DNA of 64,000 bases from the IMG/VR virus record IMGVR_UViG_3300010396_000002, positions 32,001 through 96,000 of that record; one strand, written 5' to 3'. How positions within the stretch are numbered: the first letter of the stretch is position 1; every line of letters starts with the position of its first letter. The DNA is from a virus. Below the pieces are notes generated by a model, which worked only from the letters and a program-made list of their open reading frames with translations, was not told where the DNA came from and did no database searches. Shown here in pieces: positions 5-62,831 of the stretch. The translations under genes were made by a program, and so were the position numbers.

Positions 5-466
5 TTGAACAAGGGGCGCCAGAAGTTGAACAGGACCACGGTCCACCGCGGCGATCTTCGCTCTTCCTGTTCGTTCAACTTGAACGTCCGCCCCACTCGG
101 CTGAACACCGCTCTCTGCGCCGCCTACCTTGGCTACCTCGCCGGCCTCCTCGGGCTCGGCCTCCGAGGCGCTGCCCTCTCATGGGCCTACGCCGTCGCCC
201 AGGCCGGGCTCGCGATAGCTCTCATCGTCATCGTTGCCCGCTGGAGGTCGACTCGGTCGAGAGGCCGACGGCCGACGGTCACGGAGGCGTGCGCGGTCAT
301 CTGCGCAGCCGCCGAGATCGCCAACGCGGCGGGGCCGTACCTTCACCTGCCGCAGACATGGGCCCTCGGGAGGGTGACCTACGTCTGCTGCTTCCTCGCG
401 CTGACGGCAGTGCAGGGGGCCGGGACATGGACCACCTTGTTCGAGCAGGATCTGCGTGGCTGCTGA
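5..466 (+). CDS. Hypothetical membrane protein (start uncertain, possibly TTG at 80)
   Basis: About 4 hydrophobic segments; overlaps the next gene. Confidence 0.55.
   Translation: MNKGRQKLNRTTVHRGDLRSSCSFNLNVRPTRLNTALCAAYLGYLAGLLGLGLRGAALSWAYAVAQAGLAIALIVIVARWRSTRSRGRRPTVTEACAVICAAAEIANAAGPYLHLPQTWALGRVTYVCCFLALTAVQGAGTWTTLFEQDLRGC
73..85. promoter_or_regulatory. Palindrome GTTCAACTTGAAC, putative operator
   Basis: Perfect 13-bp palindrome. Partial copies at 1-10 (CAACTTGAAC, cut by the window edge) and 23-31 (AAGTTGAAC). Confidence 0.45.
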
Positions 467-738
467 CTCACCTGTGGCTGCTCTACATCGTCTTCGGGCT
501 GTGGGTCGTCGCGCTCCTCGCGTGGACGGTGCTCCTGCTCTACGCTTACCCGGTAGCCCGGCGACGCGAACGCCTTGCACGTGATCGCGAACGCCTTGCG
601 TTCGAGGCCCAGAAGGCAGCGGAACGCGCTACCATCTTTCACCTGGAAGCCGCGGACCGGGCCTCACGGACCGAACGCGCGCTCGAGGCACTGATTTTGC
701 GAGGGCGCTGGTTCGGGCGCCCTCAGGGGGGCTCGTGA
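427..738 (+). CDS. Hypothetical membrane protein with coiled-coil tail
   Basis: MDHLVRAGSAWLLTHLWLLYIVFGLW; TM segment then charged helix; stop overlaps the next start. Confidence 0.6.
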   Translation: MDHLVRAGSAWLLTHLWLLYIVFGLWVVALLAWTVLLLYAYPVARRRERLARDRERLAFEAQKAAERATIFHLEAADRASRTERALEALILRGRWFGRPQGGS

Positions 739-9258: not shown

Positions 9259-9488
9259 CAGAAGACCTCGACGACCCGCGCGTCTCTGTTGCCCGGATCG
9301 TTCCGCAGCAACCACCCACTGGCGTCCTCGCGGGTCTCGAAGGCCTTCACGTCCTCGTAGCGGGGATCGACGCGAGCCGCTGACGCCCATCGCCAGAGGA
9401 GCCCACCACGGCTCTCCGTCAGCACGAAGTCACCGATGAAGGTGGACTCCTCGACGCGCCAGCGCGGGACAGGGGAGACGGTCAGCAC
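9258..9488 (-). CDS. Hypothetical protein
   Basis: High-GC3 3' part of a longer ORF. Confidence 0.5.
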   Translation of the reverse strand: MLTVSPVPRWRVEESTFIGDFVLTESRGGLLWRWASAARVDPRYEDVKAFETREDASGWLLRNDPGNRDARVVEVF

Positions 9489-9766
9489 TCGTCGCCCGTC
9501 TCGGTCAGGTAGAGGTGCACCAGTTCGAGCTTGTCGGTGGACATGCCGTCGAGACCCCAGCCCTTCCGCTTCGCCGCGGCCAGCGCCCGCTTCTGCTCGG
9601 CGACGGGGTAGCTCTGGATCTCCGCGATGAGGTCCGCCCGCCGCTTCATCTGCCAGAGCGCGGTCTCCACCTTGCTCTCCGCCGCCGAGAGCGCACGTGG
9701 GAGCTCGGTGTGAGGCACGCCGGGGAAGGCGTCCCAGATCCGTTGCTGGATCTCGGCCGCATCCAT
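9482..9766 (-). CDS. Hypothetical protein
   Basis: High-GC3 helical ORF. Confidence 0.6.
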   Translation of the reverse strand: MDAAEIQQRIWDAFPGVPHTELPRALSAAESKVETALWQMKRRADLIAEIQSYPVAEQKRALAAAKRKGWGLDGMSTDKLELVHLYLTETGDEC

Positions 9767-9874
9767 CTTGCGTCTTGCGTGCGTCGACGGGGATCCGCTT
9801 GGTCACCCCGTTGTGCGTGATCTCGATCCAGTCGTGCGCCGGGGTGAGGGCCGTCGGAACAACGATGCCCATCG

Positions 9875-51162: not shown

Positions 51163-51464
51163 CGCTTCGCCCTCCTCTTCGCTTCCGCCTCGTCGCGCTT
51201 CCGTTGCTCTTCGATCTTTGCTCTGACCTTGGCCATCGCTGCATCCTCGGCCGCGATCGTTTCCTTCATCGCGCCCCAGTCTGCATGCGAGTCGACCATC
51301 CTCTTCCAGACCGCTCGGCACCCGTCATGGGTCCCGTACTGAGCCTCCGCGTCGTTGAGCGGGGCCTCGCACCAGGGGACCAGGCACTTGCTGTACGGCC
51401 GGAAGCGCCGGAAGCCTTCGCCCCCGAGCTGCGCCTTGACCTGTTCGCTGACGTCGTCGCTCAC
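51159..51464 (-). CDS. Hypothetical protein
   Basis: GTGA overlap with the dnaB stop. Confidence 0.55.
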   Translation of the reverse strand: MSDDVSEQVKAQLGGEGFRRFRPYSKCLVPWCEAPLNDAEAQYGTHDGCRAVWKRMVDSHADWGAMKETIAAEDAAMAKVRAKIEEQRKRDEAEAKRRAKR

Positions 51465-52924
51465 TCCTCGAACCTCGTCAGGCTCTTGGTGAACCACATG
51501 GCGATCTCTGCCGAGTCGTCGCCGTGCCGGTTCTTCTCGAACACGAGGTCGGCGCGCACCTGCCCCCCGCGCGTAGGCGATGGAGTCTTCGGCGGGTTCT
51601 TCGCCGTCTTCAGCACCGCCAGCGTCTGCGCGTGCGTCTTCAGGCTCGGCGCGCCGAACGCCCCACCCTCGCTGTTGAGCTGGGTGATCACGACCGCGGC
51701 GAAGTCGAGCTTGAGCGCGAGGTCTTCGATCTCGCGCCCCACACGGTCGAGCTTCTCGTTGGTCGAGTCGTTCCTCCGCGCGTCGGGTTCGTTCGAGCCG
51801 AACCGCTGCACCGTGTCGAAGACGACGACGGAGAGCCGCGCCGGGCAGTTCTGGCCATGCTCGGCGCACGGCCACCCCTCCTTCTCGAGCTTCGTCTTCC
51901 AGGCGCGCAACTCGACGCGCAGCCGGCGGACCGTGAGCTTGTTGTCGTCGTGGATGAAGATCGGGAGCGATCGGATCCACTCGGCCGCACCGTGCAGCGC
52001 CGGCCAGTGGCTCTTCACGGGGTTCCCGTACTCGTCGGTCTCGACCATCTGCTTCGTGCGTAGACGCGTCTCGCTCACGCCACCGTAGGTGCAGGCGAGC
52101 GCCGTCGCGATCTGGGCGCGGGTCATCGAGTCGGCGACCGCGAAGAAGACTCCTTCGTAGATGTGCCCACCGTCGGGCGTCGGCGTCGGTGTGCGCGCGA
52201 TGTTCGCGCCCCACTGGCGAGTCAGGCTGCTCTTGCCGCCGCCCGAACGCCCCCCGAGGAGCAGTACCTCGCGCCGGTGCAGGCCGCCCGTCGTCTGGTC
52301 GAACTGCTCGAACTGCGTCGCGAGGCCAGCGACCTTGCCTGTCGTCGAGGCGTCCCGCTCGGCGCGGTCCATCGCCTCCTTCATCGACTCCTGGATCGTA
52401 ACCGCGCTCGTGCGCGCGCCGAGGTCGGCGGCGTCCTGCACGAGCCCGACCGTCACGTCGGCCCAGTCCGCGCCGATCTTGCCGCCCATGGCAATCGCCT
52501 TCTGGGCATCGAGCGTCGAGAGCACGGTCCGGTTGCGCGCGTGCTCGCGGATCGCTTCGCAGTAGCTGCGCACGTTCTGCGACGGGCCGTGCTGGGCGAC
52601 GAGCATCCGCACCTGCGGTTCGCCGATGCTGTCGAGGTAGCCCAGGCGATCCAGCGTCGAGAGCAGCAGCTCCACGTCGATCGCGCCGCGCGTCTTCCGC
52701 GTGTCGCGCACGCCCTCCCACAGGCGCTGGTAGTTCGCGCCGTAGAAGTGCTGCGGCTCGAGGATCTCCAGCGCGAGGTCGCACTGTTCGACGTCGAGCA
52801 CGCACGCCGCAATCGTGGCGCGCTGGATCCGCTCGTCGTGCGGTGGGGCCGGCTCCTTCGGCGGCGGCACGGCGCGCAGGTGTGGAAGGGACTGCTTCTG
52901 GACTTCGGGTGCTCCGCTGCTCAT
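51461..52924 (-). CDS. dnaB: Replicative DnaB-like helicase
   Basis: N-domain PPHD...LEPQHFY; Walker A GGRSGGGKS; Walker B VVFD; TQLN; KNRHG arginine finger. Confidence 0.9.
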   Translation of the reverse strand: MSSGAPEVQKQSLPHLRAVPPPKEPAPPHDERIQRATIAACVLDVEQCDLALEILEPQHFYGANYQRLWEGVRDTRKTRGAIDVELLLSTLDRLGYLDSIGEPQVRMLVAQHGPSQNVRSYCEAIREHARNRTVLSTLDAQKAIAMGGKIGADWADVTVGLVQDAADLGARTSAVTIQESMKEAMDRAERDASTTGKVAGLATQFEQFDQTTGGLHRREVLLLGGRSGGGKSSLTRQWGANIARTPTPTPDGGHIYEGVFFAVADSMTRAQIATALACTYGGVSETRLRTKQMVETDEYGNPVKSHWPALHGAAEWIRSLPIFIHDDNKLTVRRLRVELRAWKTKLEKEGWPCAEHGQNCPARLSVVVFDTVQRFGSNEPDARRNDSTNEKLDRVGREIEDLALKLDFAAVVITQLNSEGGAFGAPSLKTHAQTLAVLKTAKNPPKTPSPTRGGQVRADLVFEKNRHGDDSAEIAMWFTKSLTRFEE

Positions 52925-54039
52925 CGTTCCGCCGCCTCCGCGCGCGCCCCGCGCGCAGCCCACGCCTCCGCCCAGTCCTTCGATCCCGGCGCAGCCCAGC
53001 GCTGGGGCTCCGCGCCCGCCTTCGCCAGGTCCCACGCGATCTTCGCTGCGTACTTCTCGCCCGCCTCGTCGCCGTCGACCGCGACGCCGGCGAAGCGACC
53101 GCGCGCCAGCTCCGCCCATGCCTGGTTCCAGTTTCCGAGCCCAGGCATCCCCAACACGATCACGTGCTCGCCGCGCGCGCGCAAGAGCTCCCGCAGAGCG
53201 AGCACATCGATCGCCCCCTCAACGAAGGCCATCGGGTACGCGAGCGGCGCCGTCGTGGCGCGCTCCACGCCGTAGGGCCATGGGAAGCCCCGGCCCCGCG
53301 CCCCGACGTACCGCGGCTCCCCCTTGTCGATGCGCCGACGCTGCACGTTCACGACGCGCCCGAGCTGGTTGCGCCACGGGATCACGACGCGTGCCTCCGG
53401 GTGCGCCAGCCGGTCGTCGCTCCCGTCGTCCCGCCGGAGCAGCCCCGTGCGGCGAACGGCGTCGATGCCGACGGCCTTGGCCATCGCCTCGACGACCGCG
53501 CTCTGCCTATCGGGCTTCGGCAGAGCAGCCCACCCGTCGGCGAGCGCAGCCTCAAGCACCTGGCGCCCCCGTAGGTACGCAGCCACGTCGCTCTGCGCGG
53601 CCGGACCGTCGAGCCGGCCGATCCGGAACATCGGCGCGACCGCGGCTGCGAAGACCTCGTCCGCGAGCGGCGGGGGTCCTGGCGGCGGAACTGGCCGCGG
53701 TGGTGGCAGGTTCTCCGGCCGCGAGATGTCGATCGCGGCAAGTGCTGCGGCCCTGGCAAGCACCTCGCGGAAGTTGTGCACACGGTCGAGGTGCTCCACC
53801 GCGGCTACCAGGTCGAAGATGTCGCCGGAGAGTCCGCACTCGGCCTGGCACTTCACCTGGATCGTCCCGTCTCCGCCGACGCGAACCGAGCACGACGGCG
53901 AGCGGTCATCGTGCGAGGGGCAGCAGATCATCACCCCGCGCGCCTGGCGCCGGGTCTTCGTGATCCCGAGGCGCCGGCAGACGTCGGCGGGGTCGCAGAG
54001 CGCTGCACGCACCGCCTCGACTGCGGTTCGGTCACCCAT
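52921..54039 (-). CDS. DnaG-type primase (CHC2 Zn finger plus TOPRIM)
   Basis: CPSHDDRSPSC...CQAECG; FVEGAID; VDGDEAG. Confidence 0.85.
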   Translation of the reverse strand: MGDRTAVEAVRAALCDPADVCRRLGITKTRRQARGVMICCPSHDDRSPSCSVRVGGDGTIQVKCQAECGLSGDIFDLVAAVEHLDRVHNFREVLARAAALAAIDISRPENLPPPRPVPPPGPPPLADEVFAAAVAPMFRIGRLDGPAAQSDVAAYLRGRQVLEAALADGWAALPKPDRQSAVVEAMAKAVGIDAVRRTGLLRRDDGSDDRLAHPEARVVIPWRNQLGRVVNVQRRRIDKGEPRYVGARGRGFPWPYGVERATTAPLAYPMAFVEGAIDVLALRELLRARGEHVIVLGMPGLGNWNQAWAELARGRFAGVAVDGDEAGEKYAAKIAWDLAKAGAEPQRWAAPGSKDWAEAWAARGARAEAAER

Positions 54040-55213
54040 GGGTCGGCTCCGAGCGACGTACGATCACACGCACTGCCTCACGCGCGCCCTGCCTGGACTC
54101 GTCGGGGGACAGCTTGTCGAGCCCGCGGTCCCGGATCAGCTTGGCCACGGCGGGGTCCATCAGCGGCGACCTCGCTTGCTCCCCGCGCTCGAAGTCTGGA
54201 CGGTAGCGCGGCTCATCCAGATCGGGCTCAATCTCGCCCCGACCAAGAGCCGCAAGGCGTTCCACTTGGGCCGTGTCACGAAGGATTGTCTCGATGCCGC
54301 GGTAGCCGCCTGGCTTTGCACCAGGACCGCGACCCATCAGCCAGTCGTCCTTGGCGGCGCCGTCGATCGCGGCCTTGCAGTCGTCTCCGGTGAGCCCTTC
54401 GGCGAAGCGGTCGAGCACGCGCTGCACCCGCTCGTCGGTCATTTTCGGCGGGCGCCCATGGTACGGAGCTGCCTGCCAATGCTCCACGACAGCGCGAGCC
54501 TCGGCGAGCCGTTCCACCGATGCCTCCCCGCGCCGTCGATGGCGACTGGGTTTCTGCGCAACGACGGCGCCGCCATCGACTACTGGGATCCGAACCTGCG
54601 CTGACGATGCCGACTCCCGAGCAGACGGGGATGTCGGCGGAGCCGGTGGGCACTCGCCCCGCCCTTCGCCGTCGTCCGACGTCGGGGTGGTTGTATTGGC
54701 GGATCCCTGGGAGGTTCCATGGGAGGTTTGTAGGGTGCCCGGCACCCCCCCGGGGGGGGGTTTAGGCAGGGGGGGAGGGGGGGTGCTTGGCACCTTGGGG
54801 GAGGGGGGTGCCGCAGCAGGAGGGGGTGGCGCGGGAGGGAGGGGGGTGCTTGGCACCGAGCTCCCCCTCTTGCTGTGCGGCCCCTGGCGGCTCAAGCGCA
54901 CGGCCTCGCCGTCGAGCGCACCCAGCGTCAGCATGTTCGTGAGCTGGGCGCCGTCGGCGCCGTAGCGCGGCTCCGTCGTGAACCAGCCGGCCTCTCGGAG
55001 GGCGCGGAGCCAGTCCCGCACGGTGCCCACGTCGAGGCCCGTCCAGGCGGCGATTGCGTCCGGCCCCTTCCACGTCTGGCGGTTCGGGTTCGTCGCTGCA
55101 CCGTCGGCGAGGCAGAGCAGCACGAGGCGTGCGATCGGCGGGAGCACGTCGCGGGAAACGTTGGGCAGCCGCTGCGCGCACTCGATGAGCAGGTTTCCTG
55201 TCTCGCCCGCCAT
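54032..55213 (-). CDS. Phage replication initiator (N-terminal HTH, Pro-rich linker)
   Basis: ARLVLLCLAD...IAAWTGLDVGTVRDWLRALREAGW; located upstream of primase and helicase. Confidence 0.75.
   Translation of the reverse strand: MAGETGNLLIECAQRLPNVSRDVLPPIARLVLLCLADGAATNPNRQTWKGPDAIAAWTGLDVGTVRDWLRALREAGWFTTEPRYGADGAQLTNMLTLGALDGEAVRLSRQGPHSKRGSSVPSTPLPPAPPPPAAAPPSPKVPSTPPPPLPKPPPGGVPGTLQTSHGTSQGSANTTTPTSDDGEGRGECPPAPPTSPSARESASSAQVRIPVVDGGAVVAQKPSRHRRRGEASVERLAEARAVVEHWQAAPYHGRPPKMTDERVQRVLDRFAEGLTGDDCKAAIDGAAKDDWLMGRGPGAKPGGYRGIETILRDTAQVERLAALGRGEIEPDLDEPRYRPDFERGEQARSPLMDPAVAKLIRDRGLDKLSPDESRQGAREAVRVIVRRSEPTHG
54733..54857. repeat. Iteron-like G-rich repeats inside the initiator gene (candidate origin)
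   Basis: GGGAG(6-7)TGCTTGGCACC twice plus degenerate copies; palindromic GGTGC-N3-GCACC core. Confidence 0.55.
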
Positions 55214-55818
55214 CAGAGTACGTCTCCACCATCGCAGTAAGGGGCGTCGCCCAACACGGCGCGTACCCTGGCCGTCTCCTCGTTGAACATGTCGAAGAAC
55301 GCCGTGCTGACCAGCCATGAGCGAACCCGGCGCATGGCATCGTGCGTTGCGTCGTGCAGGTCCACGTCGGACAGGTGCGTGCTCTCCGCGACCTGAAGTT
55401 CGCGCTCGACGCTCTCGAGCATCGCATGGCTCCACACCGTGAGCTTTTGCTGGTGCTCCACGACTTCGAGCAGCATGCGCGCGCGCCCGACCAACTCCCA
55501 AAGTTGATCGTCGGCCATGCTCCCGTCGTCCTTCGGTTGGTCGTGTGCTGCCTTCGCACCGTCGACGAATGCGGCGAGCACCGGCTCAAACCGGAAGAAC
55601 TCCCCCTCCGAACGAATGCGCAGCGAAGCGAACCGTTCGTGGAGGGCTTGCTCGTCGTCCCTGGTTCCGGGGACCGCGACGAGAAGCGTGAGCACCTTCG
55701 AGTTGCCGGTCTGGAGCCGACGCCGGCGCGCGTGCGGGTTGCCTGTCGTCGTGCCGATCTTGATCGGCCCTGACGCGTCCCCTTCCTGGAGGAAGTAGAC
55801 CCAGCTCTCTGTGCCCAT
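55213..55818 (-). CDS. GIY-YIG (T5orf172-like) protein
   Basis: VYFLQ...IKIG...RRLQTGN...EQALHERF...GEFF. Confidence 0.8.
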   Translation of the reverse strand: MGTESWVYFLQEGDASGPIKIGTTTGNPHARRRRLQTGNSKVLTLLVAVPGTRDDEQALHERFASLRIRSEGEFFRFEPVLAAFVDGAKAAHDQPKDDGSMADDQLWELVGRARMLLEVVEHQQKLTVWSHAMLESVERELQVAESTHLSDVDLHDATHDAMRRVRSWLVSTAFFDMFNEETARVRAVLGDAPYCDGGDVL

Positions 55819-58372: not shown

Positions 58373-58603
58373 TCACTTCCGAAAGAAGGACGCGAGCGAG
58401 GTAGCCCCGACGGGCGCCGCGGCGAGCGTCACGGACACGGTCCCCCGCTTCCGCCCCATCCGGTCCAGAGCGGCCTTTGCCTGCTTCTCCCCGTCTGCCT
58501 TGTCCAGGCAACGGCCGGAGGCGAGGTACGCCCCGATCGGGGAGTAGAGACGCCACACGTACGGCAGGGGCGCGGGGGAAGCCTTCGGGGTCTTCTTAGC
58601 CAT
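58373..58603 (-). CDS. Small basic protein, first gene of the leftward operon
   Basis: Follows a promoter-like sequence. Confidence 0.55.
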   Translation of the reverse strand: MAKKTPKASPAPLPYVWRLYSPIGAYLASGRCLDKADGEKQAKAALDRMGRKRGTVSVTLAAAPVGATSLASFFRK

Positions 58604-58615
58604 GCCCGGAGCCTA

Positions 58616-58632
58616 TGCGATCCCCGTGCCAG
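58616..58632 (-). promoter_or_regulatory. Sigma-54-like promoter (leftward)
   Basis: CTGGCACGGGGATCGCA: GG-N10-GC. Confidence 0.55.
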
Positions 58633-59047
58633 GGGGGCAGACGCTACCAGGGCGCCCCCGTCCGGACAGGGGGAGCGCCGAGCATCGGGAAGGCTCGCCA
58701 GGGCGACGAGGGACGGGCGCCAAGGCGGGAACGGTCGGGCGGACGGGGGACAGGGACTCCACGGCGACGCCTCGCTCCTACGGGCGCCAGGGAGGCGCGC
58801 CCGGGGCAACGGGGCACGGGAGACCCGCCCGGGAGGCGTCCCACGATGCAAAGGTGCAAGATCCCAGCTTTCAGGGTTGAAAAACAGGGGGATTCGCTAG
58901 CAAGCGAGCACACTTACGGGGTCTCCAGCCTATCCAGGCGGCTCCGGGGAGACTTCCACGATTGCAATAACGGGGGGTCCGTCCGCAAGCGTGCCAAGTC
59001 GCGAGAAAACCCTTCAAAACAAGGTGAATCGCGCGAAAGCGAGCGGA

Positions 59048-59063
59048 CGGCACGCCACCTGCA
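59048..59063 (+). promoter_or_regulatory. Sigma-54-like promoter (rightward)
   Basis: CGGCACGCCACCTGCA: GG-N10-GC. Confidence 0.6.
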
Positions 59064-59073
59064 ATAGGGGTGA

Positions 59074-59920
59074 ATCGTCCGGCGCAGCAACAGGGCGACG
59101 GACACCGACGGACGGCCCCCCGCGAGGGGGGCACCCGTCATCCGGTCACCGGGGCGTGCGATGCCCCCTCCGATACGCTCCCGGGCAACCGGGGACCCGC
59201 AAGGGTAGGAGGGGTCGCTAGCTGCCAAGGGGCGCGCCAACACAGGGCGCTCCGTTCCGACATCGGCGCATCCCCCCGGACAGGGGGCGACATCAGGGGA
59301 GCGCGGGCGAGCTTAGGCCCCGCCTTAAACGACCATCCCCCGCAGTCATTCCCGCCCGGAGAACGCTACCGGGGCGGTGAGACCGAGAGCGCGGCTTAGC
59401 ACCCCGCGCGCGGCAGTCTCGCGATGTCGCGAGGCTACCAGGGCGACCATAGGGCAGGTTCAGAGACTGCCGGCAGGACCGGGCAAGCTTCCCAGTGCTT
59501 CTCTCATAGAGGCATGATGCGGCAAGGGATTCGGACCGGGATAGAGACTCGCACCGTGCGCCATGTCGAAAGGCGAGAAGCGGGCGAGCAAACGCATCGA
59601 TCGGAAGACGATGCCTGTTGAGAGTTTCGGGTGCGTTGCCCTCGGATATGCCGCGCGAAGGCGTGCGACGGTCGCAAGGGCGGACGATGACACCCGACGG
59701 GGAGCCAAGCACATAGGGCCCCGCACTCCAAACAGGAACGCCTCCTAAGCGAGCGGTGAAGGGAACACCCTTGAACGGATCCAGGCCCGTGCGGCAAGTG
59801 CCACACGGGGGACCATTCGAGCCCCTGTCACCGCGGGAGACTGACTCGGACCGACGAGCGGTAAAGCAGGTGTCGCAACCTGCACTGACAGACAGGGCGG
59901 GCGCTCTACAACGCTCCCCT
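59074..59920 (+). ncRNA. Candidate large (~850 nt) structured ncRNA or leader
   Basis: No credible ORF; GNRA-capped hairpins at 59115-59132, 59180-59193, 59195-59206 and 59594-59614; longer-range helices 59411-20/59463-72, 59628-33/59691-96 and 59753-59/59828-34. Confidence 0.55.
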
Positions 59921-59927
59921 GTGACAC

Positions 59928-59967
59928 GCGCAAACCCCCGACGTCGCCTTGACGTGCGGGGGTTTGC
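59928..59967 (+). repeat. Bulged-G hairpin element, copy 1
   Basis: GCGCAAACCCCCG-ACGTC-gcctt-GACGT-G-CGGGGGTTTGC. Confidence 0.85.
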
Positions 59968-59986
59968 CGATCGTAGGAGGCACACC

Positions 59987-60541
59987 ATGCTCAAGTCATC
60001 CGGGATCACGGTAGAGCGTCGCGACGCGATGCGGATCGCTCCCCAGCGCGCGGAGCAACTCCGCAGCCAGCGCGCTAACGGGATGTCGAGCCGCTACGGG
60101 CACGCCCCGGTGTGCAGCAACCAGCGATGCGACGGTGAATGTCGCCTCTGCTCGGCTGACGCCGCGTCCGCTGCCCTCGTTCCGGATGACGCGGCGGACG
60201 CTCGCGCCAAGCTAGACCGCACGATCCAGCGCGCGGTCCGTCGCAACTATCGCGCGACCACGACACCGGCGGTCGTGAAGCGCACGACAGAGACCAGCGC
60301 CATCGCAGCAATGCGAGCGGGGGGACTCGCGGATCATCAGATCCGCGCCGCGCTTCTCCAGCGGACCCCCGTTGAGACCGTCGTGAGGACCGCGAACGAT
60401 GTCCGGCGCGACGTCAGGCGCGCCAAGATCGGCGCGCAAGCGATCCACGACGCGGCGACGTTCCGCCGCACGATGCAAGCGGACGAGCGGCGCGATCCTC
60501 GCGTCTACCTTGACGGCGACGCGGTCGTCATTCCCACGTGA
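59987..60541 (+). CDS. Hypothetical protein (array unit 1)
   Basis: AGGAGG RBS. Confidence 0.7.
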   Translation: MLKSSGITVERRDAMRIAPQRAEQLRSQRANGMSSRYGHAPVCSNQRCDGECRLCSADAASAALVPDDAADARAKLDRTIQRAVRRNYRATTTPAVVKRTTETSAIAAMRAGGLADHQIRAALLQRTPVETVVRTANDVRRDVRRAKIGAQAIHDAATFRRTMQADERRDPRVYLDGDAVVIPT

Positions 60542-60542
60542 A

Positions 60543-60584
60543 CGCGCATACCCCGGGAGCCGGAAGGCTTGCCGGGGTTACGCG
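60543..60584 (+). repeat. Bulged-G hairpin element, copy 2
   Basis: GCGCATACCCCGG-GAGCC-ggaa-GGCTT-G-CCGGGGTTACGCG. Confidence 0.85.
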
Positions 60585-60600
60585 ATCGGAGGCACACACG

Positions 60601-60780
60601 ATGATCCGCACGTTCCAAGGCGAGTATTCTGATAGTCGCACGGCACCATGCGGCAACGGATGTTGCGACGGCGCTTGCATCATCTGCGATCCGCCGCGCC
60701 CGTGCCTCGGCTGCAACGGGAAGACGCGCGACGACTCCGGTTACTGCCGGAAGTGCCGCGAACGCAACGGCGACGAGTAG
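60601..60780 (+). CDS. Small Cys-rich protein (unit 2)
   Basis: GGAGG RBS; 9 Cys in 59 aa. Confidence 0.65.
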   Translation: MIRTFQGEYSDSRTAPCGNGCCDGACIICDPPRPCLGCNGKTRDDSGYCRKCRERNGDE

Positions 60781-60817
60781 CGCACACCCCGGGGGACTCG
60801 GTCCTGCCGGGGCTGCG
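60780..60817 (+). repeat. Bulged-G hairpin element, copy 3
   Basis: GCGCACACCCCGG-GGGAC-tcg-GTCCT-G-CCGGGGCTGCG. Confidence 0.85.
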
Positions 60818-60835
60818 TCGTTGAAAGGCGGAACC

Positions 60836-61441
60836 ATGACGGACCAAGTCACGGGCGCGGACATCGCGAAGGCCATGAGGGCAGCGGTAGCCCAAGCGAG
60901 GCTAGAGCAGCTCGCCGCGGACACCGAAGCGAAGTCAGACGCGGCGGACATCTCGCGCAAGCGGGCCCGGTCCTTCTTCGCGCGCCCCACGTCCAGCCCG
61001 AACCGCGCGCCCGTCGCACGGTCGACGGATGACGAGCACAACGCGAAGGGATACCCATACGAGATCCCGGGTTTCGTGCTCGCCAACGATCGCGGTCTCT
61101 ATCTCCCCCCTGAGGGGAGCTTCTCCCGCGAGCTTGACCGCGTGTCGCCCGAGATCGAGGCGGACATGCGAGCGAACCAGATCGAACGCGAAGCCAAGGC
61201 GGCGCAAGCTCTTGCCGCGGCAGACGCGGCGGAACGCGCGTACCAGCACGCGCTCGCGACGGGCGCACGCAAGGTCGCGACGGCGTGGGTTCAAGCGGAG
61301 CGCGCACGGGCGCGCGCGGAGCGCGCTGTCGACGCGGCGAAGCCTCGGCCCGTGTTCCGCTTCGCCGGACCGAGCGACGCAAAACACGCCGGCCAGATCC
61401 AAGCTCAGCGCGGCATCGTCAAGCTCCGCCGCATGTTCTAG
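60836..61441 (+). CDS. Ala/Arg-rich helical hypothetical protein (unit 3)
   Basis: AAAGG RBS. Confidence 0.7.
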   Translation: MTDQVTGADIAKAMRAAVAQARLEQLAADTEAKSDAADISRKRARSFFARPTSSPNRAPVARSTDDEHNAKGYPYEIPGFVLANDRGLYLPPEGSFSRELDRVSPEIEADMRANQIEREAKAAQALAAADAAERAYQHALATGARKVATAWVQAERARARAERAVDAAKPRPVFRFAGPSDAKHAGQIQAQRGIVKLRRMF

Positions 61442-61481
61442 CGCACACCCGGGGGCTTCCAAGCCGCCCGGGTTGCTGCGT
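61441..61481 (+). repeat. Bulged-G hairpin element, copy 4
   Basis: GCGCACACCCGGG-GGCT-tcca-AGCC-G-CCCGGGTTGCTGCGT. Confidence 0.85.
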
Positions 61482-61495
61482 GGAAGCGAGGCGCC

Positions 61496-61843
61496 ATGCG
61501 CAAGACCATCGACGTCGTACGGGACGTGATCATCGCCATCATCGAAGCCGACCGGGAGCCTGGCACGGCTCCTACCGGGTGCGCGATCTACGAAGGCGGG
61601 GCGACCATCCTGCCGGAGCGCATCCGCGGCCGCGTGCCCAGCAAGATCAGATGGACGGCGTCCCGTGGGCAGCACGCCTGGGAGGGCGCGCTGTTCACGC
61701 TCAAGGCGCTCGGCGTCGACATCGGCCAGCCGCTCAACACCGGCGACACGATCCCGGTGAGCTGCCACTGCGGGGCAACGGAGGGCCTCCGCGAAGACCC
61801 CTACGGTGGCGGCAAGGTCTGCCCCACGCACTACCAGCCGTAA
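61496..61843 (+). CDS. Hypothetical protein with C-terminal Zn knuckle (unit 4)
   Basis: GAGG RBS; CHC...CPTH. Confidence 0.7.
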   Translation: MRKTIDVVRDVIIAIIEADREPGTAPTGCAIYEGGATILPERIRGRVPSKIRWTASRGQHAWEGALFTLKALGVDIGQPLNTGDTIPVSCHCGATEGLREDPYGGGKVCPTHYQP

Positions 61844-61881
61844 GCGCACACCCGAGGGCCTGACGGCTGCTCGGGTCGTGC
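61844..61881 (+). repeat. Bulged-G hairpin element, copy 5
   Basis: GCGCACACCCGAG-GGCC-tgac-GGCT-G-CTCGGGTCGTGC. Confidence 0.85.
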
Positions 61882-61900
61882 CGTCGAAAGGACGGTCACC

Positions 61901-62074
61901 ATGTCCAAGCTCTGCGCCAGCATCGTCATCACGTGGGCCGCCGGCCTCGTCGCCGGTCTGCTCATCCGGTCCAGCGCGGGACAGCACGGGCTGCTCCCGA
62001 GCCTCGCGATCGTGGTCGTGTCTGCCGGGGCAGCGGGCGCCATCTTCGCGCTCACTGCGGGGAGCCGGTCATGA
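61901..62074 (+). CDS. 57-aa two-TM protein (unit 5a; below the ORF-track cutoff)
   Basis: AAAGGA RBS; MSKLCASIVITWAAGLVAGLLI...LAIVVVSAGAAGAIFAL. Confidence 0.65.
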   Translation: MSKLCASIVITWAAGLVAGLLIRSSAGQHGLLPSLAIVVVSAGAAGAIFALTAGSRS

Positions 62075-62373
62075 GAAAGGACCGCGTCATCAAGTTCTCC
62101 ACCGGCGGCTATGTGACCGAGAAAGACGGGCGCCGCCGTGCGAAGTTCACCAGGAAGGAGGCACACGATGAAGCTCGCAAGATCCGTGCAGGCGATGGCC
62201 GGTGCACCGTCGTGAGGCTCGTCCCGCCGGTGATCAACGTGACGATCAAGCTCCAGATCCGCGGGATGGCCGGTACCGTCTGGGACATGGTCGAGGACGC
62301 GCTCGATGCTGGCGACGTTCAGGAAATCTTCAACAGCTCGGAGACGCTGGTCCTCTCCGCCGTATCCGAGTAG
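62071..62373 (+). CDS. Hypothetical protein (unit 5b)
   Basis: ATGA overlap. Confidence 0.65.
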   Translation: MRKDRVIKFSTGGYVTEKDGRRRAKFTRKEAHDEARKIRAGDGRCTVVRLVPPVINVTIKLQIRGMAGTVWDMVEDALDAGDVQEIFNSSETLVLSAVSE

Positions 62374-62411
62374 CGCATACCCCGGAGGCTTCTTGCCTGC
62401 CGGGGCTGTGC
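62373..62411 (+). repeat. Bulged-G hairpin element, copy 6
   Basis: GCGCATACCCCGG-AGGC-ttctt-GCCT-G-CCGGGGCTGTGC. Confidence 0.85.
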
Positions 62412-62431
62412 CGTCAGGAGGGCTATCCGCC

Positions 62432-62773
62432 ATGAATGACAAGATCCCCGCCGTGTTCGAGAACCTGACCGCAGCGTCCCCGCTGGATGACCTCTGTGTC
62501 GCGGCCTATATCGCCGCCGCAAACGCTGCCCGCGAGGACATGAAGCCGCAGCGTGCGGGAGCGTGCCTCGCCTCGGACGATGCGACGATCGCTTACTTGC
62601 GCGCCCCATCGACGCGCTCCTGCCTGGAGGACTGGCTCCAAGCGTACCGGCACGACGAGGGCGTCCTGACCGCGCTGTCCGACGATGCACGCACCCAGGT
62701 GCTCGCCTCGGCATGGCGCGCATACGAGGCAACCGTGATGCAAGCGCGCGACGCTGCGCGGGCCGGTACCTGA
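62432..62773 (+). CDS. Hypothetical protein (unit 6)
   Basis: AGGAGG RBS. Confidence 0.7.
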   Translation: MNDKIPAVFENLTAASPLDDLCVAAYIAAANAAREDMKPQRAGACLASDDATIAYLRAPSTRSCLEDWLQAYRHDEGVLTALSDDARTQVLASAWRAYEATVMQARDAARAGT

Positions 62774-62812
62774 GCGCACGCCCCCGACCGGAAACGGTGC
62801 GGGGGTCGGCGC
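62774..62812 (+). repeat. Bulged-G hairpin element, copy 7
   Basis: GCGCACGCCCCCG-ACCG-gaaa-CGGT-G-CGGGGGTCGGCGC. Confidence 0.85.
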
Positions 62813-62831
62813 ATTGAAGGAGGCCGACACC

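Follow-up and report, generated by a model that had tools for sequence, protein, structure and literature searches.

A large structured RNA, probably of no catalogued family, heads a hairpin-punctuated gene array in a phage genome

Bases 32001-96000 of the 155,559-bp IMG/VR record IMGVR_UViG_3300010396_000002, a stretch of 64,000 nucleotides (nt) referred to here as the window, belong to a complete virus with direct terminal repeats (DTR) and a GC content of 69%, a phage labelled G000 below. The largest intergenic interval of this genome is a gene-free gap of 1383 nt (58604-59986) between two divergent ATG codons (58603 leftward, 59987 rightward). Leftward genes lie on one side of the gap; on the other begins a rightward array of small genes, each then followed by a bulged hairpin. 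Our subject is the RNA encoded at the head of this array. The last ~600 nt of the gap very probably encode a conserved, complex, non-coding structured RNA that falls outside every catalogued family. An original prediction, made from the DNA letters alone, had drawn a densely structured stretch poor in open reading frames (ORFs) from 59074 to 59920; its non-coding status was confirmed, and the gap itself turned out to be wider. The features of the locus are compiled in Table 1. Among the public sequencing runs searched, the sole DNA match was a soil metagenome, which is the probable source; the contig was identical and no strain variation was seen.

The gap does not look like coding DNA. A codon log-odds model trained on the long ORFs of the same phage scores the flanking genes positively, whereas between about 58550 and 59950 every one of the six frames falls below zero. 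Long ORFs do exist inside the gap, for example one of 238 amino acids (aa) on the minus strand (59293-60009), and they are artefacts of the high GC content. At the homologous loci described below, every plus-strand frame of each homologue is interrupted by 5-13 stop codons, and tblastx similarity between homologues is scattered over all six frames in patches of 13-44 codons that hop from frame to frame. The similarity among homologues is not protein-like, and no reading frame is conserved. The earlier claim that the stretch holds no credible gene thus agrees with both lines of evidence, and a protein-coding signature was not seen in the homologues. ARAGORN detected no tRNA or tmRNA gene in the whole window, and a search for paralogues of the gap elsewhere in the genome gave none.

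Homologues were reached via the adjacent gene for P0003, the first product of the array: contigs encoding P0003 relatives were retrieved and their upstream DNA was compared. The P0003 family has six members across two large protein databases (P0003, P0008-P0011 and P0013), and the RNA is present upstream of every member whose upstream DNA was readable. Three independent relative loci (L004, L011 and L013) share the same layout, which consists of leftward genes, a gap of 1.4-1.8 kb without called genes, and a P0003 homologue. Together with the window they make up a comparison set of four independent sequences, three of which (all but L013) contain the full-length leader. The core can be aligned in all four, identical blocks reaching 18 nt in length; nhmmer E-values for the gap homology range from 1e-102 to 1e-141, and each complete genome carries one copy. 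G000 and G001, the complete phage to which L011 belongs, have about 100 ORFs in common that are just 35-65% identical at the amino-acid level, and little else around the gap is conserved between them. The core is found, then, in two complete, distantly related phages of ~160 kb and in two further environmental contigs.

Further searches added no sequences to this set. The gap had no blastn match in 50,697 phage records, no relatives were found in IMG/VR with P0002, P0003 and the DnaB helicase as queries, and the G001 copy was the only homologue of P0005. Scans for the exact loop motif of hairpin PB (viral and metagenome contigs), for the exact 3'-domain motif (viral and genome contigs) and for a GAUAGAGAC-PB motif (viral contigs) returned no true homologue, all new matches lying in unrelated coding DNA or failing an nhmmer screen. 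Because scans of viral, metagenome and genome collections gave only chance matches, the RNA family is rare in current data. The phage clade is likewise sparsely sampled, since its terminase-like protein has few IMG/VR relatives: the protein is 67% identical to a G001 protein, one more IMG/VR contig encodes a relative with 26% identity, and an alignment search yielded nothing beyond these two.

In the helices, the four homologues have retained pairing although the letters have changed. Twelve helices registered by hand comprise 71 pair positions, at which 98.7% of cells are canonical and 26 positions have changed on both sides, as against 0-3 when the 3' partner was slid out of register. In a covariance-model (CM) alignment of the 3' domain including hairpin E1, 91.4% of the cells of 35 pairs are paired (31-48% when slid), and both sides have changed in 14 of the 35 (0-5 when slid). 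The corresponding CM alignment of the 5' domain has 90.4% of cells paired over 30 pairs (25-42% when slid), 10 of them changed on both sides (1-5 when slid). In neither domain did any of 500 shuffles score as high. Helix H3 illustrates how sequence was swapped while pairing was kept, reading GGCAG/CUGCC in the window, GGUAG/CUACC in L004 and L011, and GCUAG/CUAGC in L013. Helix beta is CCUGUU/AACAGG in the window and CCGUG/CACGG in the relatives, and helices alpha, beta and gamma show multiple compensatory changes among the window, L004 and L011.

Folding energies point the same way. The z-score against shuffled sequences is -6.1 for the plus strand of the core (59385-59986) and -3.6 for its minus strand; the values for 59074-59920 are -3.9 and -2.2, respectively. 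The core of L011 also scores -6.1 and that of L004 -2.5, and two 602-nt coding controls gave +0.8 and -0.1. Local z-scores in 150-nt windows are modest between 59400 and 59700. On two points raised by the original prediction, the collected homologues contain compensatory base changes across four sequences, and the core folds far better than shuffles.

Across the homologues the core measures 490-600 nt and comprises about 14 helices in three domains, in which loops and junctions are conserved. Folds computed for each sequence and anchored on the conserved blocks gave the same architecture in all of them. In the central domain, nested helices alpha, beta and gamma enclose the GGG-UGC...CCC hairpin and the hairpin with the CAnAUAG motif, and the delta hairpin comes next. 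The loops and junctions AUGUCGAAA, CAAACG, CGGUAAA, UCGCA, CUACA and UGACA are constant, and the sequence of E1, the hairpin that bounds the structured RNA on its 3' side, is conserved in all four loci. A GUCR sequence in the PB loop (59565-68) can in all four sequences pair with the YGAC that immediately precedes E1 (59922-25), the variable pair being U-G, U-G, C-G and U-A; this is a weak lead for a tertiary contact. In three homologues the segment that follows CAAACG has two alternative partners, either the next bases, with which it forms a local hairpin capped by a GNRA loop, or a distal strand that closes the central domain. Such alternative pairing could reflect a conformational switch or be a coincidence.

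The individual helices of the original prediction fared unevenly. Its irregular hairpins of 70-80 nt (59628-59696 and 59753-59834) are present, as window-specific extensions of conserved helices that are absent from L004; peripheral variation of this kind is typical of large RNAs. A 10-bp helix (59411-20/59463-72) is peculiar to this phage and competes with the conserved H2 and H3, and three of the four listed GNRA-capped helices fall in the variable 5' 310 nt; the other listed helices are present in the minimum-free-energy (MFE) fold and the helix list. Conservation is limited to the 3' two-thirds of the leader, 59385-59986; the 310 nt before it vary between lineages.

Table 1. Coordinates of features in the window and, where named, in homologous contigs
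Feature	Position	Strand	Remarks
Terminase-large-subunit-like protein, 662 aa	3751-5739	-	Motifs; no Pfam match
DnaB-type helicase gene	51461-53119		In leftward block, ~5.5 kb from gap
T5orf172/MUG113 (GIY-YIG-related) domain protein	55213-55818	-	
PHAX_RNA-bd domain protein, 251 aa	56379-57134	-	PF10258, E = 1e-10, above cut-off
Leftward gene	58373-58603	-	ATG at 58603
-24/-12 motif TGGCACG-N4-TCGCA	58616-58632	-	Pattern scan; 13 nt before ATG of 58373-58603
Divergent control region	58633-59048	.	Non-coding, 62-64% GC, poorly conserved
-24/-12 motif GGCACG-N4-CTGC	59049-59062	+	Sigma-54-type; presumed leader promoter
Variable 5' leader part	59075-59384	+	~310 nt; lineage-specific hairpins, including GCGA, GCAA and GCAA caps
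Conserved core, window	59385-59986	+	
Conserved core, L004	1395-1886		2.8-kb NCBI metagenome contig; protein 48% identical to P0003
Conserved core, L011 (= L012 = L014)	9330-9848		Part of G001, second complete DTR phage, 162,811 bp
Conserved core, L013	~60-581		Logan contig; 581 nt upstream sequence
5' domain	59385-59593	+	Alignments A4, A7, A11; CM alignment A12
H1 hairpin	59389-59409	+	5' domain
H2 hairpin	59416-59435	+	5' domain; in all homologues
H3 hairpin	59453-59471	+	5' domain; in all homologues
P4, CCGG-closed stem	outer 59479-82/59536-39; inner 59490-93/59526-29; tip hairpin 59495-59515	+	5' domain
PB, three-tier hairpin	59548-59588	+	5' domain; 9-nt loop AUGUCGAAA at 59563-59571, almost invariant
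Junction CAAACG	end of 5' domain	+	
Central domain	59594-59858	+	Per-sequence folds, helix lists
GGAA-capped hairpin	59594-59614	+	Central domain
Helix beta	59614-19/59731-36	+	Central domain, nested
Helix gamma	59622-25/59725-28	+	Central domain, nested
H-UGC (GGG-UGC...CCC hairpin)	59628-33/59691-96	+	Central domain; window-specific insertion hairpin 59634-59686
CAnAUAG-motif hairpin	59698-59723	+	Central domain
Delta hairpin	59742-59839	+	Central domain; window-specific extension 59753-59834
Small hairpin	59845-59858	+	Central domain
Alternative-pairing segments, window	59595-59614, 59847-59854		
Alternative-pairing segments, L004	1612-1629, 1731-1736		
Alternative-pairing segments, L011	9544-9561, 9710-9715		
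3' domain	59859-59926	+	Model R1, alignment A10
Junction CGGUAAA	start of 3' domain	+	
HD hairpin	59866-59883	+	3' domain; loop UCGCA
Junction UGACAGA	between HD and next hairpin	+	3' domain
Hairpin with conserved CUACA loop	59892-59922	+	3' domain
Junction UGACAC	end of 3' domain	+	
E1, first bulged-G intergenic hairpin of array	59927-59969	+	3' boundary of structured RNA
Shine-Dalgarno AGGAGG	59975-59980	+	
P0003, first operon gene, 184 aa	59987-60541	+	
Second array gene, 59 aa	60601-60780	+	11 cysteines (CxxxCCxxxCxxC...CxxC...CxxC); no family match

The RNA has no counterpart among known families. Rfam 15, whose families include GOLLD, ROOL, OLE, HEARO, raiA, RNase P, group I and II introns, tmRNA and the RAGATH motifs, gave no match in the whole window at gathering scores. 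With the limit relaxed to E <= 5-10, region 59060-59986 and the homologous cores produced nothing beyond chance-level matches to small RNAs. The scan suggested earlier thus leaves the RNA outside the catalogue, and the GOLLD and ROOL classes, which the original prediction had named as known large phage RNAs, have no model match in the window or in the homologous cores. The only ribozyme turned up in a relative. L004 contains a type-P5 twister ribozyme (RF02684) on the plus strand at 1134-1185, which scores 50.8 bits against a gathering threshold of 37.6 (E about 1e-9) and has all conserved segments, including UAAUGC and CAAGCCCGG. It sits in the variable spacer, about 170 nt past the predicted transcription start and 210 nt upstream of the core. 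At the aligned place in the window (approximately 59113-59165) a hairpin and CCGGUCAC are kept, and the catalytic core is not; twister-P5 did not match 59060-59400 even at E <= 10, nor did any ribozyme family match the spacer of the window or of G001 at that limit.

Several features point to the plus strand as the one that carries the RNA. In the three full-length loci a promoter motif lies upstream and the genes lie downstream on this strand, the L004 twister has the same orientation, GNRA loops are found there together with more A than T (A 20-22%, T 10-13% in all three leaders), and it is the strand that folds better (z-scores above). Sigma-54 promoters are characterised by a -24 GG and a -12 GC spaced 10 nt apart in the consensus TGGCACG-N4-TTGCW; the rightward motif, GGCACG-N4-CTGC, has GG at 59049-50 and GC at 59061-62. 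The original prediction had the RNA start about 12 nt after a sigma-54-like -12 box, and 59074 is indeed 12 nt downstream of that GC. The motif has been kept at corresponding positions of three loci (59049 in the window, 940 in L004, 8880 in L011), and the first array hairpin follows it at 879, 873 and 914 nt, respectively; the L004 copy aligns to the promoter part of the Rfam narK motif. Transcription would be expected to start near 59073-59076, and the leader is presumably transcribed from this motif by host RNA polymerase. Between the motif and the first gene a terminator scan found no terminator-like site, and no sigma-70-like promoter was found; for this reason co-transcription of the RNA with the first gene as an operon leader, and with the array as had been proposed earlier, is plausible.

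On the minus strand a second -24/-12 motif precedes the leftward gene and is probably the divergent partner of the leader promoter. Its counterpart in L004 (TTGGCCCG-N4-TTGCG, position 489, minus strand) lies 17 nt before the leftward ATG, so that both motifs are conserved in that contig. If the minus-strand motif acts as a promoter, the mRNA of 58373-58603 would be nearly leaderless. The control region between the two motifs is conserved only in short patches such as GCAAGATCC near 58855. Likewise, 59075-59384 does not align with L004 and L011 beyond short patches, and the first ~310 nt of the leader appear to be a fast-evolving spacer.

P0003, directly downstream, has a conserved arginine-rich N-terminal segment (MR.AP.RA.QLRS.RAN) and a C-x4-C-x3-C-x2-C motif; it has no Pfam match, and its Atlas model is of low confidence. 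The hairpins that follow the downstream genes are weaker copies of E1, here and in the relatives, where they recur as weak matches to the 3'-domain model R1 (L011 9903-19734, L004 2275-2385 and L013 1199-1273; window 60477-62818). By sequence comparison, then, the hairpin-punctuated array appears to be a conserved feature of this phage group. E1 has no U-tract and the terminator scan was negative; the array hairpins likewise have no U-tracts and were not scored as terminators. The earlier view of a large structured RNA heading a hairpin array describes the locus well: an untranslated, densely structured region on the plus strand stands at the head of the array.

Taking these data together, we propose, and give an even chance of being right, that the locus encodes an operon leader RNA that is trimmed into a discrete, stable RNA acting through its fold. 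According to this model, 59075-59986 (~912 nt, plus strand) would be the untranslated 5' leader of the rightward small-gene operon, transcribed by host polymerase from the sigma-54-type motif at 59049-62 in a single transcript with the first gene, and its last ~600 nt, ending at E1, would be an uncatalogued multi-domain RNA. This folded core might then be trimmed to a discrete, stable RNA particle by a 3' cut at E1, a hairpin of the type found after every array gene, and by a 5' cut in the spacer, made by twister self-cleavage in the L004 relative and by host RNases in the present phage. Because E1 has the form of the hairpins that follow each gene here and in the relatives, the RNA seems to occupy a 'cassette' slot of the array. 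The particle would act via its conserved three-dimensional fold by binding a protein or another RNA and would not be a simple hairpin-type attenuator; a simple attenuator or 5' stabiliser could do with far less than some 14 conserved helices and their invariant loops.

Several considerations weigh against this model. Cleavage at E1 is an analogy and not a result, L004 alone has the twister among the three loci whose spacer is complete, and processing in the present phage is purely inferred. That the RNA is strictly linked to the downstream gene would be expected just as much of an element acting in cis. The comparison rests on four independent sequences, a number at which statistics of R-scape grade are impossible; moreover, the helices were first seeded from single-sequence folds, and the CM alignments were fitted to the proposed structure. 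G-U pairs account for just 3 of 234 cells, so few that pairing alone cannot fix the strand. Across the genome the -24/-12 motif shows no enrichment, with 4 copies found and 3.2 expected. The complete phage genome has no match to Sigma54_activat (PF00158) or Sigma54_DBD (PF04552) and is without an activator ATPase, and sigma-54 and its activator must therefore be supplied by the host. Finally, no RNA run among the public sequencing runs contains this DNA.

Other explanations of the locus differ in where they place the function. Unlikely, in our view, is a cis-acting leader that reprograms transcription, in which the RNA, with or without the arginine-rich first product, rides the polymerase and makes it read through the ~22 hairpins of the 25-kb array in the manner of HK022 put or lambda N/nut. 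The RNA is indeed always directly upstream of, and co-oriented with, a P0003-family gene and the hairpin array, no terminator intervenes between RNA and genes, and the distance from promoter to E1 is held at 873-914 nt although the sequence of the spacer is not conserved; the arginine-rich N-terminus of P0003 is also, by analogy, of the position and type of lambda N. Yet the need for antitermination is not shown by array hairpins that lack U-tracts and terminator scores, a multi-junction fold of 500-600 nt compares with 65-120 nt for known antiterminator RNAs, neither a conserved boxA/boxB-like element nor anything put-like is present, and the twister upstream in L004 would be superfluous. CGCUCU was considered as a boxA-like box and dismissed, this window sequence not being kept in the relatives. 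We rate slightly lower still a leader that acts in cis on stability or translation, either by shielding the 5' end against RNases (the twister giving a 5'-OH) or as a switch controlling translation of the first gene. A possible switch is suggested by the proximal and distal partners of the segment after CAAACG in the window, L004 and L011. An anti-Shine-Dalgarno-like GCCUCCU (59739-45) also pairs with the Shine-Dalgarno sequence in the MFE fold of the window. That pairing, however, is not conserved, as L004 and L011 use the segment for the delta hairpin and have different Shine-Dalgarno regions; the proximal alternative may be coincidental, since it overlaps helix beta in these two relatives and not in the window; and 5' protection needs only small structures, not ~14 helices with invariant loops.

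Two readings would deny that an RNA is at work at all, and both are far less probable than the cis-acting leaders. It is very improbable that the gap works at the level of DNA, for instance as a replication origin or recombination site in a divergent control region beside the replication genes. Its position between divergent operons, about 5.5 kb from a DnaB-type helicase gene, would suit an origin, the scarcity of G-U pairs means that the hairpins could form in DNA too, and the minus strand also beats shuffles (z = -3.6). Against this, the gap has no iterons or internal repeats, its core is not AT-rich, known origins are not built of ~14 independent covarying helices with conserved single-stranded loops, and the features read on the plus strand, namely GNRA loops, promoter motif and, in the relative, the twister, fit an RNA. 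Least credible, and next to negligible, is the absence of any function, with decayed genes or GC-rich filler producing chance hairpins. High GC does yield spurious long ORFs and many hairpins, and the local z-scores at 59400-59700 are modest, but phages whose proteins are only 35-65% identical share identical blocks of 18 nt here, with nhmmer E-values as low as 1e-141; these matches, the compensatory changes and the lack of any conserved reading frame contradict this reading.

Compared with known systems, the RNA most resembles ROOL and GOLLD, large 'ornate' RNAs of phages and prophages (PMC5737381) whose structures have been examined by cryo-EM (PMC12286853). Like them it is phage-encoded, of 0.5-0.8 kb, and composed of many helices, multi-stem junctions and short invariant loops, and for all of them function and protein partner are not known. 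In GOLLD, moreover, conservation is high in the 3' region and low in the 5' region (PMC12286853), as in the leader described here. With at least 400 nt, many covarying helices, no coding capacity and a phage as its source, the RNA has the properties of a large ornate phage non-coding RNA. By contrast, it matches neither Rfam model even at E <= 5-10, has no adjoining tRNA genes, stands behind a sigma-54-type motif as the leader of an operon of protein genes, and is known from four sequences from soil and other environmental samples.

A second likeness concerns self-cleaving ribozymes near phage genes, which are thought to process polycistronic transcripts (PMC6765202). As in the ribozyme-associated phage RNAs reviewed there, a novel folded RNA stands beside a twister, in our case in L004, and is found at the head of an array of small genes punctuated by conserved RNA elements. 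Unlike in those arrays, no ribozyme is detectable in G000 or G001, the intergenic elements are bulged hairpins and not ribozymes, and neither RAGATH nor any other Rfam family is matched. The lambda N leader (nutL plus an RNase III hairpin) shares with our locus the succession of promoter, long structured leader, hairpin before the ribosome-binding site and small arginine-rich first product, and, like HK022 put, it heads a long operon. Our locus differs from nut and put in that its core is 5-8 times larger, the promoter type is another one, and conserved boxA/boxB elements or put-like twin hairpins are missing. RAGATH-type motifs are grouped with the structured RNAs associated with twister and hammerhead ribozymes.

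Two neighbouring genes of the leftward block deserve comment. A PHAX_RNA-bd domain in a phage protein (56379-57134) is unusual; a link between this PHAX-like protein, P0002, and the RNA is doubtful, since no homologue was seen close to the RNA in G001. The G001 homologue of the T5orf172/MUG113 protein has an extra HTH_8 (Fis-type) domain and adjoins the RNA-containing gap.

Very few bacterial or phage RNAs are known that exceed ~500 nt and fold in a complex, conserved way, and each known one (rRNA, RNase P, group I and II introns, OLE, GOLLD and ROOL) has proved to be catalytic or to form an unusual assembly. It is tempting, if speculative, to carry the trimmed leader RNA one step further, although we consider this extension only a little more probable than a transcription-reprogramming leader: the core may be an ornate phage RNA of a new class that is active in its own right, be it as a ribozyme, as a ROOL/GOLLD-like RNA-only cage, or as the RNA subunit of a complex with the arginine-rich zinc-knuckle product of the first gene. 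It would then be freed as the operon's first 'cassette', and the array hairpins would take over the role that twister and hammerhead ribozymes play in other phage gene arrays. In any case, the core is a candidate for a so far undescribed class of large phage RNA, in a clade of ~160-kb soil phages that has hardly been sampled, and it comes with a context that consists of a sigma-54-type promoter, a linked small arginine-rich protein, a processing-like hairpin array and a natural variant with a twister upstream. Its length suits in vitro transcription, chemical probing and cryo-EM, and it bears on what large phage RNAs do and on why self-cleaving ribozymes cluster in the small-gene arrays of phages.

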